Shown here in pieces: positions 38,560 through 64,000 of a stretch of DNA of 64,000 bases (within the stretch, counting starts at the first letter, position 1; the number at the start of each line of letters is the position of its first letter). The DNA comes from a virus. The stretch lies in the IMG/VR virus record IMGVR_UViG_3300032272_000002, positions 1 to 64,000 of that record; one strand, written 5' to 3'. A program made the translations under genes and the position numbers. The notes beneath the pieces were generated by a model. That model was not told where the DNA came from and did not search any database. It worked only from the letters and a program-made list of their open reading frames with translations.

Positions 38560-38633
38560 GGGCACGTAGCATTGTGGAATGCAGCCGCCTCTAAAACGGT
38601 AAGAAGCGAGTTTGACTCTCGTCGTGCCCTCCA
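38560..38633 (+). tRNA. amber suppressor tRNA (anticodon CTA)
   Basis: GGGCACG/CGTGCCC acceptor, GCAT/ATGC D stem, GCCGC-CTCTAAA-ACGGT, T-CCA. Confidence 0.8.
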
Positions 38634-38673
38634 TTTTCACTTGACAACCACAACCAGCGTGGTAGGGTGTAGT

Positions 38674-38952
38674 ATGCGTTACGTCACAATGGTTGGAGAT
38701 ATCATCTCCGAGCCTTTCGAATCCAAGCATGATAGACTGTGCTTCAAGCTGCGTGACCCCAATGGCTTAGATATTACCTGCTACGCCCCCTTTCAATTGG
38801 CACACCACGTCAGAGAAGGCGACTATATTATGTGCTATGGTAAGATCGTAACGACAGATGATGGTCGCATGATTGTGTCCTTGGAAGCAATACACGAAGA
38901 AGATAGACCAGTGCCCGAGCCCAACACGTTCGAGTTAGGTGGAGCCCTGTGA
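38674..38952 (+). CDS. OB-fold-like small protein with FELGGAL tag
   Basis: Beta-strand pattern (VREGDYIMCYGKI); ends NTFELGGAL*. Confidence 0.7.
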   Translation: MRYVTMVGDIISEPFESKHDRLCFKLRDPNGLDITCYAPFQLAHHVREGDYIMCYGKIVTTDDGRMIVSLEAIHEEDRPVPEPNTFELGGAL

Positions 38953-39227
38953 CAATTGGATATGTAGAAGGGCCAGTAATGTCAATAAGTTTTGGAATTG
39001 ATTATGTTGAATTTGACGTTCGTGCCATTGGGCAATTTAGCAACGCAGCTAAGCGAGTACGCTGTATCGCCCCCATTAATTTTAAAAGCGTTATAAAATT
39101 GAACAATGAAGTCAGCATCAGCGGCACAGTAGAACATGAGGACACGCCGAGCGGAGTTTTCTCACGTATTAGAGTCACCCGCGTTGAACGAGTGACTAAT
39201 GAATTTCTGCTCAGCGGAGCATTGTAG
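38949..39227 (+). CDS. OB-fold-like small protein with FLLSGAL tag
   Basis: EVSISGTVE...RIRVTRVE; ends NEFLLSGAL*. Confidence 0.7.
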   Translation: MTIGYVEGPVMSISFGIDYVEFDVRAIGQFSNAAKRVRCIAPINFKSVIKLNNEVSISGTVEHEDTPSGVFSRIRVTRVERVTNEFLLSGAL

Positions 39228-39251
39228 TGTACTATTAATTGGAGACATAAA

Positions 39252-39563
39252 ATGACCTAGACTCACTATTTTATTCTTGTTAGAAAAGATTTACCCCTCT
39301 CCCAGCAACTTGTGCAAGCCTCGCACGCAGCTTATGAAGCTGGGAAGAAAGATAGCGGCCCGGATATTTTATCTGTGGCAATGTGTGAGACACCCTCGGA
39401 AGACCAGCTACTAGCTGAGGCCGACAGGCTCGAATACTTAGGTATTAAATATACTCTCTTCCGAGAACCTGATAGAAATAACGAGGCCACCGCTCTATGT
39501 ACGGAACCTCTTTCTTCGCAGCAACGTAAGCGGCTCGCCCGCTGGAAGTTATGGGAGGTCTAA
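39252..39563 (+). CDS. Pth2-like peptidyl-tRNA hydrolase with in-frame TAG at codon 3
   Basis: GGAGA Shine-Dalgarno, then ATG ACC TAG, then THYFILVRKDLPLSQQLVQASHAA...FREPDRNNEATAL. Confidence 0.78.
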
Positions 39564-39565
39564 TC

Positions 39566-39592
39566 ATGTTGTAGACAGCAAGACCACCCTAA
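39566..39592 (+). CDS. minigene M-L-(amber)-T-A-R-P-P-stop
   Basis: GGAGG Shine-Dalgarno 7 nt upstream; ATG TTG TAG ACA GCA AGA CCA CCC TAA. Confidence 0.55.
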
Positions 39593-39654
39593 GTAATATC
39601 TGTTTCTGTTTTATTTACTGTTACACTTTAAACAAACAAAAAGAGATAGATATT

Positions 39655-39948
39655 ATGAAAGAACTGAAAGAACTAATCAAAACGCTCGCCGCCGAGCAGA
39701 TCGAATTGAAAGCTGGCCGTAAGACGGGATCGAATCCCGGCTATGAGAAACGCTGTGCATCTAATGATGCAGCCAGCAAAGTCCGTCGTAACAAGCCGAA
39801 GATTACTGCGGCACATAATCTGATGCATGAGCTTCGTGGCTCTGATTACCAGCATAACCTTCCCGATGATTGGGATTGGCTCTATTGGTACAGAAAGGAC
39901 ATGGAAGCCTTGCGTGCAGAGTTTGCGGTTGAGCCCGCAACAGAATAA
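39655..39948 (+). CDS. hypothetical protein in the Pth2/amber cluster
   Basis: Clean ORF directly after the minigene. Confidence 0.65.
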   Translation: MKELKELIKTLAAEQIELKAGRKTGSNPGYEKRCASNDAASKVRRNKPKITAAHNLMHELRGSDYQHNLPDDWDWLYWYRKDMEALRAEFAVEPATE

Positions 39949-40107: not shown

Positions 40108-40165
40108 CTTGACACACGCTGAGAGCGTGTTACTATGTAGGTGTCCTTGATAGTGACTGTTTTGA

Positions 40166-41187: not shown

Positions 41188-41258
41188 GTTGAATGATAGT
41201 TTAATTGGTAGAATACCCGCCTATCGGGTGGTGTCGGTTCGAGTCCTGACTCGTCAAT
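41188..41258 (+). pseudogene. degenerate tRNA-like element with a shortened anticodon arm
   Basis: TAGTTTAATTGGTAGAA D-arm pattern and GGTTCGAGTCC T arm; CCCG-CCTAT-CGGG. Confidence 0.45.
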
Positions 41259-47609: not shown

Positions 47610-47809
47610 GTTGTAGATTCTGCAATCAGGACGCCACACATAAAATTCCTTTTGAAACACGGGAAGACACCGAGCGGGCAGCTAAATTTATCGCCTTAAG
47701 GCCACGCCCAACGGGCGTGGTCAACCTATGTCCTGCCTGCTACAAGACTTATGGTGATTACATTCGTCAATATTATTCGCCAAGGTTCGAACTTGGTGGT
47801 GCTCTGTAG
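47606..47809 (+). CDS. zinc-finger protein with FELGGAL tag
   Basis: CRFC...CPAC; ends PRFELGGAL*. Confidence 0.7.
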   Translation: MSCRFCNQDATHKIPFETREDTERAAKFIALRPRPTGVVNLCPACYKTYGDYIRQYYSPRFELGGAL

Positions 47810-47842
47810 TGTATTTTCCTGAATGGAGGATTGCCCCCGTTC

Positions 47843-48553
47843 ATGGTATTAGAAATCACACAGGACAACACTGTTATTCGCGGCGAGACCATTAATGAAA
47901 GTATTAGAATTAAGGCCCATAACGTACGGATCGAACGTTGCAAAATTACTGCACCAGACGATCTGTATGTCATTCAGGCCAATTTTAAGGACAAGAAAGG
48001 TCGGCCATTCAAGGGAACTGAGATTCTCAGAAACGGTATCAGCGACGGTCGAACGGCCATGCTGGTACAGCACTCACTGGTTCGTGGCAACTACATCCAC
48101 GATATGGTGGGAGACGGTATCAAGTGTGATCTGGGCGGCAACGTCTGGATCCACAAGAATATCATTCACAAAATTGGTTCGGACCCAACGTCTCACGCAG
48201 ACGGCATCCAACTTTTTGGCGGCGAGCGATTCCTTATCTCTCACAACATTATTGAGATGCCAAAAGATGAGCCTGGGTTCACTCCCAATGCTTGTGTTTT
48301 TGCAGAGAGTAACTTCCAACCCCTTCATACGGTCTGGATCCAACATAATCAATTGAATGGTGGAAACTACACGGTTTACCTTAAAGATCAGTCATTCGGC
48401 ATCCCCGAAAACGCTCGACTTATTGGTAACGAGTTCGGAGACGGCTTCGCATTCGGACCCCTGTTCGCCACCAAGCCTAGCTCCATCCTTATTGGAGGTA
48501 ATCGCTGGGCTGCCTCTGGTAAGCCCATGGGCATCAACAACATTGACAGCTAA
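47843..48553 (+). CDS. right-handed parallel beta-helix (pectin-lyase-like) protein
   Basis: Repeated IxxNxI strands; HADGIQ. Confidence 0.75.
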   Translation: MVLEITQDNTVIRGETINESIRIKAHNVRIERCKITAPDDLYVIQANFKDKKGRPFKGTEILRNGISDGRTAMLVQHSLVRGNYIHDMVGDGIKCDLGGNVWIHKNIIHKIGSDPTSHADGIQLFGGERFLISHNIIEMPKDEPGFTPNACVFAESNFQPLHTVWIQHNQLNGGNYTVYLKDQSFGIPENARLIGNEFGDGFAFGPLFATKPSSILIGGNRWAASGKPMGINNIDS

Positions 48554-63165: not shown

Positions 63166-64000
63166 ATGAGAGACCCTATCCTCTTAAAGAAGATCGAGCA
63201 AGAAGTCCAGGCTGGCAATGTTGTTGCCAGTGAGTGGGAGGGTCTAACCGTATATAAGTATACGCAAGAATGTCACCATGAAAATAGATGGAATGATATT
63301 AACAGACAGTGCCGGGGAATCATCCTAGACAAGCATGGACGAGTCTTCGCCCGTCCTTTTTCCAAGTTCTTCAACCTCAACGAAGTCGCGGAGACCATGT
63401 ACGACCAGCTACCGTGGGATTGCGGCGTACAAGTATTCGAGAAATTGGATGGCTCCTGTGGCACCTTGTTTCGCCACCCGCAGCATGGCGTATGCCTATC
63501 CACTCCTGGCAGCATGCAATCTGACCAGGCCAAGATGGGCACCGAGATACTCCGTCGTAGCTCGTGGGGCACTAACTTTATGGCCGACCTACCAGACGAC
63601 TGCACTCCTATCTTCGAGATTATCTATCCCGAAAACCGCATCGTCGTAGACTACCGAGGTCGCGAAGACCTTGTGCTGCTATCTATCTTTCAATTGAACG
63701 GAGAAGAGTGGCATCAGAATAGAGTAGACGCTATTGCTGAGAAGCATGGCATCACCCGCCCTCGCCGCTTCGACCTAGACGTTACTGACATTCAATTCCA
63801 GGACAACGAGGAGGGATACGTGTTCCTCTTCGATAACGGACTGCGTGTCAAGTCTAAGAGTCCAACGTACCTGCGGATTCACAGGCTGCTTAATTACCTG
63901 AGCCCAAAGGGCGTCATTGATCTTATCCGTGGTCATGAGTACAGAACCACGCTGGCCCAATTGCCAGATTCTATTCAGCAGGACTTCGACGACATCAGGG
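63166..64000 (+). CDS. T4 Rnl1-type RNA ligase (truncated by window end; absent from the ORF track)
   Basis: Hand translation: YKYT...CRGIIL...RPFSKFFN...EKLDGS...FEIIYPENRIVVDY...EEGYV. Confidence 0.9.
   Translation, partial: MRDPILLKKIEQEVQAGNVVASEWEGLTVYKYTQECHHENRWNDINRQCRGIILDKHGRVFARPFSKFFNLNEVAETMYDQLPWDCGVQVFEKLDGSCGTLFRHPQHGVCLSTPGSMQSDQAKMGTEILRRSSWGTNFMADLPDDCTPIFEIIYPENRIVVDYRGREDLVLLSIFQLNGEEWHQNRVDAIAEKHGITRPRRFDLDVTDIQFQDNEEGYVFLFDNGLRVKSKSPTYLRIHRLLNYLSPKGVIDLIRGHEYRTTLAQLPDSIQQDFDDIR

Follow-up and report, generated by a model that had tools for sequence, protein, structure and literature searches.

Organization of the locus

The 64,000-nucleotide (nt) stretch of DNA analysed here (hereafter, the window) represents the first 64 kb of IMG/VR virus record IMGVR_UViG_3300032272_000002, a phage record of 169,742 nt in total that contains 28 tRNA genes. 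Between positions 38560 and 39948 of the window, on the plus strand, a gene for an amber suppressor tRNA is followed by two frames interrupted by TAG at their third codon, one of which continues into a protein with the fold of peptidyl-tRNA hydrolase 2 (Pth2), and the other of which is a leader minigene situated directly upstream of a third frame, termed ORF-X. Conservation and codon/anticodon covariation suggest that the suppressor tRNA very probably gates the Pth2-like gene and ORF-X as a dedicated translational switch, for which readthrough, ribosome stalling and hairpin opening are the presumed steps.

The suppressor tRNA gene (38560..38633, anticodon CUA) was called by ARAGORN and scored 51.9 bits against the Rfam tRNA family, for which the gathering threshold is 29; the acceptor end carries the pairs G1-C72 and G2-C71, U73 and an encoded CCA. 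The stems of its homologue in locus L292 (L numbers denote loci of the homologue set described below) are preserved via paired changes, and the discriminator base varies among CUA tRNAs (A in 30, G in eight, U in four and C in one). The identity of a pyrrolysine tRNA was considered and rejected, as the Rfam match is to the generic tRNA family, the discriminator is U and not the G73 of such tRNAs, and the ARAGORN label follows the anticodon.

The gate of the Pth2-like gene (39241..39260) consists of a Shine-Dalgarno (SD) sequence, GGAGA (39241-39245), and ATG ACC TAG (39252-39260), in which the amber codon (39258-39260) is followed by a purine at +4 and then by 100 open codons up to TAA at 39561-39563; with readthrough, the gene (39252..39563) therefore encodes 103 amino acids (aa). 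The leader (39554..39592) overlaps this gene, in that its SD sequence, GGAGG (39554-39558), sits within the last codons, and its frame (39566-39592) begins two bases past the stop; it reads Met-Leu-amber (TAG at 39572-39574) followed by five codons ending Arg-Pro-Pro and a TAA. In a predicted hairpin (39593..39656; fold z = -3.19), the 5′ arm directly follows the leader stop and the 3′ arm covers the start codon of ORF-X (39655..39948) together with its ribosome binding site (RBS) region. ORF-X encodes a basic protein of 97 aa, modelled as three helices, whose unnamed family has 227 representatives. The tRNA, the codon-3 amber leading into a Pth2-like frame and the amber-containing minigene had all been noted in a preliminary description made from the sequence alone, and each was recovered at the same coordinates.

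Genetic code of the phage

Outside these frames, TAG is an ordinary terminator, as the preliminary description had proposed: 39 of the 200 long open reading frames (ORFs) of the genome stop at TAG. Coding coverage under code 11 is 0.87–0.99 per 10-kb bin in the bins beyond 70 kb, and translating TAG as sense gave no gain in coding density in the gene-dense structural region; genome-wide recoding of TAG (code 15) or TGA was thus ruled out. No release-factor gene of the RF-1 family was found in the genome, which is ~83% complete. A genome-wide scan for an SD-led ATG followed by one to seven codons and TAG, and then by at least 40 open codons or a Pro-Pro-stop, returned five hits, two of which have TAG at codon 3; these two are the Pth2-like gene and the leader.

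Conservation of the gate and covariation with the suppressor tRNA

Homologues of the Pth2-like gene were collected from viral, metagenome and GenBank sources, yielding 144 distinct loci; L002–L006 were false matches. An early in-frame stop after an SD-led start was identified in 112 of these loci (103 TAG, seven TGA and two TAA), and the remainder comprise two four-base gates, 12 genes with their own start, 17 unclear cases and one that is cut off. The gate lies between codons 3 and 9, most often at codon 3 (45 loci), and a purine occupies position +4 of 110 of 116 TAG gates; a purine after UAG is a context that favours suppression. The same early TAG occurs in the cultured phages ME3, GAP32, BF, Arash and RsoM2USA, an amber is present at the fusion start of the HD-fused homologues of XacN1, Xoo-sp13 and RAS14, and three genome-bin contigs carry the TAG gate together with a CUA tRNA. 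Because the gate is conserved in homologues, both chance and a sequencing error, the latter having been named in the preliminary description as a possible refutation, are excluded for the early TAG. In the annotations of the carrier phages the Pth2-like gene is truncated or missing, which the proposed gate would explain.

The codon of the gate and the anticodon of the nearest suppressor within 5 kb agreed in 58 of 58 loci (52 TAG/CUA and six TGA/UCA), without a single mismatch. A TAA gate in L077 is accompanied by a UUA tRNA at a distance of 5.3 kb, and CUA tRNAs are located elsewhere in the genomes of XacN1, RAS14, Xoo-sp13 and RsoM2USA; in RaK2, where the gene has its own start, the tRNA region contains no CUA tRNA. 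On the protein tree, TGA gating requires four changes, at least two of which are forced by strong branches, so that it does not represent one inherited event.

In L074 (9863-10020) and L089 (9865-10025; L090 is near-identical to L089), only decoding of TGAA as a four-base codon gives access to the Pth2-like frame; immediately before it, L074 and L089 carry a tRNA for which an anticodon loop of 8 nt, with UUCA in the centre, can be drawn. The homologues of these two loci form a single clade at 51% identity. For L074, an alternative drawing with a loop of 7 nt and a mismatch in the stem is also feasible, which makes the four-base reading tentative; tentatively, the UGAA form may link stop-codon gates to four-base gates.

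Several variants of the gated gene were also observed. A second in-frame TAG lies ~27 codons past the R-x-D motif in L026, L031, L033, L036, L041–L043, L065, L078, L079 and L082, always directly after Pro-Pro, Pro-Gly or Asp-Pro; L044 has two ambers ahead of the Pth2-like domain, and an in-frame insertion of ~270 codons interrupts the gene in L078 and L082. An HD-motif domain is fused to the Pth2-like domain in L008 (1964-2803, ORF364 of XacN1), L007, L011, L022, L045, L187, L220 and L225, in which the stop gate stands at the fusion start and the annotated starts lie 3′ of the amber; upstream of ORF364, an SD sequence and Met-Lys-amber are found in frame. Other genes adjoining the Pth2-like gene likewise begin SD-Met-x-amber in L013, L057, L066 and L080. 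Immediately before the Met of the ungated RaK2 homologue (L012, 2460-2500), His-amber-Val-Asn-Asn stands in frame and is reminiscent of a relic gate.

The leader minigene and the hairpin

Homologous leaders were identified in 15 other loci, where Met is followed by one to six codons, a stop, a few codons and Pro-Pro; the gate is TGA in L038 and L088, TAA in L061 and TAG in the others, and matching tRNAs are present in L088 (UCA) and L061 (UUA). In 15 of 17 loci, 50–69 nt separate Pro-Pro from the start codon that follows. An exact DNA pattern search for the leader gave no match. The leader of the window ends Ala-Arg-Pro-Pro and so departs from the R/Q/H-A/G-P-P type of arrest motif, and RGPP is present in some of its homologues (L023, L286).

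The predicted cost of opening the ORF-X RBS is 14.2 kcal/mol with a modelled ribosome at the amber codon and 5.0 kcal/mol with the ribosome at Pro-Pro. Since a footprint placed closer to the RBS will generally reduce the opening energy regardless, this footprint-driven drop of 9.2 kcal/mol was compared with that of 63 control genes of the genome, for which the mean was 0.03 and the maximum 6.9 kcal/mol, so that none of the 63 reached 9.2. As in RAPP-type leaders, the downstream start of this locus is thus predicted to lie in a stem-loop that a ribosome standing at the arrest site would open.

All nine loci fetched via ORF-X alone have either a gated Pro-Pro leader (four) or a Pth2-like gene (five) directly upstream; among the latter, three are gated and accompanied by a CUA tRNA, and two are cut off. 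In L291 (784-1136), a gated Pth2-like gene itself ends Pro-Pro-stop and a hairpin downstream of it covers the start of ORF-X, so that both gates are fused, and in L292 the leader, ORF-X and the tRNA are present without a Pth2-like gene nearby. The proteins behind the leaders of L038, L054, L057, L061 and L088 showed no firm link to ORF-X.

The Pth2-like protein, ORF-X and the HD-motif partner

The AlphaFold2 model of the Pth2-like protein has a predicted local distance difference test (pLDDT) score of 94, and Pth2 structures occupied ranks 1–12 of its Foldseek search with template modelling (TM) scores of 0.74–0.81 (for 1q7s and 2zv3, E = 1.5e-6 and TM ~0.8). Its score of 18.1 bits falls below the Pfam gathering cut-off of 23 for PF01981, and a PTH2 match at E up to 0.01 was obtained for 41 of 52 homologues. 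It shares the fold and the N-terminal R-x-D-L and Q-x-x-H-A motifs with Pth2 hydrolases (PF01981; 1q7s, 2zv3, 1xty), but lacks their Gly-Lys motif and has F-x-E-P-D in place of D-x-G-x-T. The catalytic residues of Pth2 are Lys, Asp and Thr (K18, D86 and T90 of the Sulfolobus enzyme); at these positions the phage homologues have mostly Gln, Glu69 (50 of 52) and a variable residue, respectively, and the residues conserved among them are H22, E26, E69, D71 and T77. The product of 39252-39563, which the preliminary description had called an enzyme, is therefore Pth2-like by fold and N-terminal motifs; as the catalytic Lys and the D-x-G-x-T motif are not kept, a role as a peptidyl-tRNA hydrolase is putative.

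The model of ORF-X (pLDDT 94.5) comprises three helices with conserved Lys, Gln, Arg and His. No match to ORF-X was found in GenBank phages, viral contigs (by a single-sequence scan), PHROG, Pfam, PDB sequences or the Atlas, and fold searches returned generic helical hairpins only (best Z 7.3). Thirty-five loci have an HD-motif gene within 1.6 kb of the Pth2-like gene, and 15 have ORF-X within that distance; searches with the HD-motif partner gave neither a Pfam match nor a useful PDB match.

Weighing of the alternative explanations

The sequence comparisons described above indicate that the locus is, in all likelihood, a real and conserved translational switch, yet several points weigh against this interpretation. 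In 51 TAG-gated loci no suppressor is present in the fetched flank, many of these being short contigs; the gates were assigned automatically under a lenient SD rule; and the protein tree is a quick build from 100 columns. Little opening is predicted for the leaders of L020, L088 and L153, and stalling is assumed from the Pro-Pro-stop, given that the leader is very short and is not an exact RAPP or RGPP.

The main rival is a constant dose limiter devoid of sensing, in which the stop codon and the tRNA would hold both proteins at a low and constant level through competition with the release factor. Every suppressor competes with release factor, and the varied discriminators among the CUA tRNAs make the inserted residue seem unimportant, as this explanation would have it. 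A weak RBS would be a cheaper limiter, however, and the two-step arrangement of leader and hairpin, the double-amber variants and the repeated co-switching of codon and tRNA suggest a conditional switch; moreover, in the four-base variants the frame would be inaccessible without the tRNA. A constant limiter is accordingly considered unlikely.

Two-codon minigenes of the lambda bar type cause peptidyl-tRNA drop-off, and the preliminary description had likened the leader to them. Under such a scheme, the two-codon frames would release peptidyl-tRNA that the hydrolase made by readthrough clears, as a toxin and antidote or as feedback on termination. Two-codon frames with a good SD sequence do exist and the gated protein does have the Pth2 fold, but gate positions range over codons 3 to 9 and are not confined to codon 3, the conserved features of the leader (Pro-Pro, spacing and hairpin) all lie past the amber, the catalytic residues are not preserved, and L292 retains the other components with no Pth2-like gene close by. 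The bar-like scheme is consequently very improbable, and a hairpin-opening leader fits better, given that the homologues retain Pro-Pro close to the leader end and vary little in its spacing to the following start. Hardly any credence can be given to the remaining possibilities, namely an internal GTG start (39312) with an irrelevant amber, partial recoding of TAG as sense, or a pseudogene: gene callers do begin the Pth2-like gene at residue 18 and annotated phage records do show truncated or missing genes, but a protein begun at the GTG would lack both its first strand and the R-x-D motif that homologues conserve, genome-wide recoding fails on coding density, and a pseudogene would not keep the position of the stop while its codon tracks the tRNA.

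Proposed mechanism

In the proposed switch, the suppressor would serve as a private decoder tRNA encoded by the phage, with two genes locked by the codon that it reads. When charged suppressor is absent, translation of both frames would halt at the third codon, and the Pth2-like protein and ORF-X would not be produced; when it is present, the Pth2-like gene would be read through directly, and ribosomes passing the leader amber would pause at the Pro-Pro-stop, where their footprint on the 5′ hairpin arm would free the ORF-X start. Because the leader SD lies within the end of the Pth2-like gene, the two gates may act in series. Judging from fold and neighbourhood, the output would report whether the tRNAs of the phage are made, matured and charged, and would turn on a small tRNA-handling module consisting of the Pth2-fold protein, ORF-X and, in other phages, the HD-motif protein.

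The preliminary description had proposed a dedicated switch governed by suppressor charging or by RF1 availability. Suppressor gating of the Pth2-like gene and of the gene at 39655 is strongly supported by conservation and covariation, but RF1 availability does not hold as a general signal, since gates also use UGA, UAA and the four-base UGAA with matching tRNAs. Because any stop or four-base word serves and the acceptor ends vary, the sensed signal is more likely to be tRNA activity than the level of RF1 or a particular amino acid. We lean modestly towards the broader view of a natural orthogonal-codon switch in large phages, in which a phage-encoded tRNA with a private codon (UAG, UGA, UAA or four-base UGAA) would report tRNA maturation or charging in the course of infection and would control a tRNA-handling module by readthrough and a stalled-ribosome leader.

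Neighbouring features

A promoter-like site (38641..38668, plus strand; TTGACA, 16 nt, TAGGGT) was read from the sequence directly 3′ of the CUA tRNA gene; it is absent from the output of a consensus promoter scan. The site may be the transcript start for the OB-fold genes, the Pth2-like gene, the leader and ORF-X. The tRNA gene and the Pth2-like gene are separated by two small genes (38674-38952 and 38949-39227), the products of which both end in a G-A-L C-terminal tag noted across the genome; the former has a weak OB-fold match. A second promoter-like site (40109-40136) resembles the first in standing directly after a tRNA gene; both have TTGACA and, after it, a short inverted repeat that lies within the spacer or next to it. 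A weak tRNA-like match (41190-41257; 26.1 bits) with a shortened anticodon arm was missed by ARAGORN, and a T4 Rnl1-type RNA ligase, possibly a tRNA repair enzyme, is encoded at the end of the tRNA region (63166-64000). The gene that terminates at the TAG at 47807-47809 shares its reading frame with the gene that follows (47831-48553, beta-helix), so that readthrough would fuse them; this may be chance.

Relation to known systems and implications

In the RAPP-like arrest leaders (SecM, ApdA/ApdP and the RQH family), a ribosome stalled on an upstream ORF ending in Pro-Pro opens a stem-loop over the next start (PMC10987492). The phage leader resembles these in its Pro-Pro ending and in the predicted stem-loop over the start of the next gene; it differs in being eight codons long, in having an internal stop to suppress, in lacking a secretion signal, in ending PP-stop without an exact RAPP, and in not being located upstream of sec or yidC. 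For stop-codon-recoded phages, in which many late and lysis genes are recoded, a suppressor tRNA has been proposed to gate genes with in-frame stops (10.1101/2021.08.26.457843); the present phage, by contrast, has a code-11 genome in which two non-structural frames each begin with a dedicated gate. XacN1 is a code-11 jumbo phage with the same type of tRNA, and its authors identified no target for its amber suppressors by readthrough of terminal ambers (PMC5852040), whereas the amber at codon 3 of ORF364 offers one. Chosen genes are likewise governed by a single tRNA or a single early stop in two bacterial cases: the bldA tRNA of Streptomyces reads the rare sense codon TTA and controls chosen genes, and prfB (RF2) is autoregulated at an early stop through a frameshift that involves no tRNA of its own. 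Neither is known to have a private codon and tRNA that covary. The parts thus have precedents, and the combination is new relative to the literature searched, which covered few subscription papers and in which no description of the combined suppressor tRNA, gate and leader was found.

In this locus the two gate types stand next to each other and the active site departs from the Pth2 canon; further contributions are the rearrangements of L291 and L292 and the UGAA form. The locus gives the orphan suppressor tRNAs of standard-code phages a candidate target, with XacN1, BF, GAP32, ME3 and Arash as cultured carriers. The natural suppressors with varied acceptor ends and the variants with 8-nt loops represent material for genetic code expansion. 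A suppressor tRNA of this kind would benefit a phage that has yet to undergo any recoding, a point of relevance to the origin of recoded phages; if the proposal is true, the orthogonal-codon switch could be a starting point for genome-wide stop-codon recoding.
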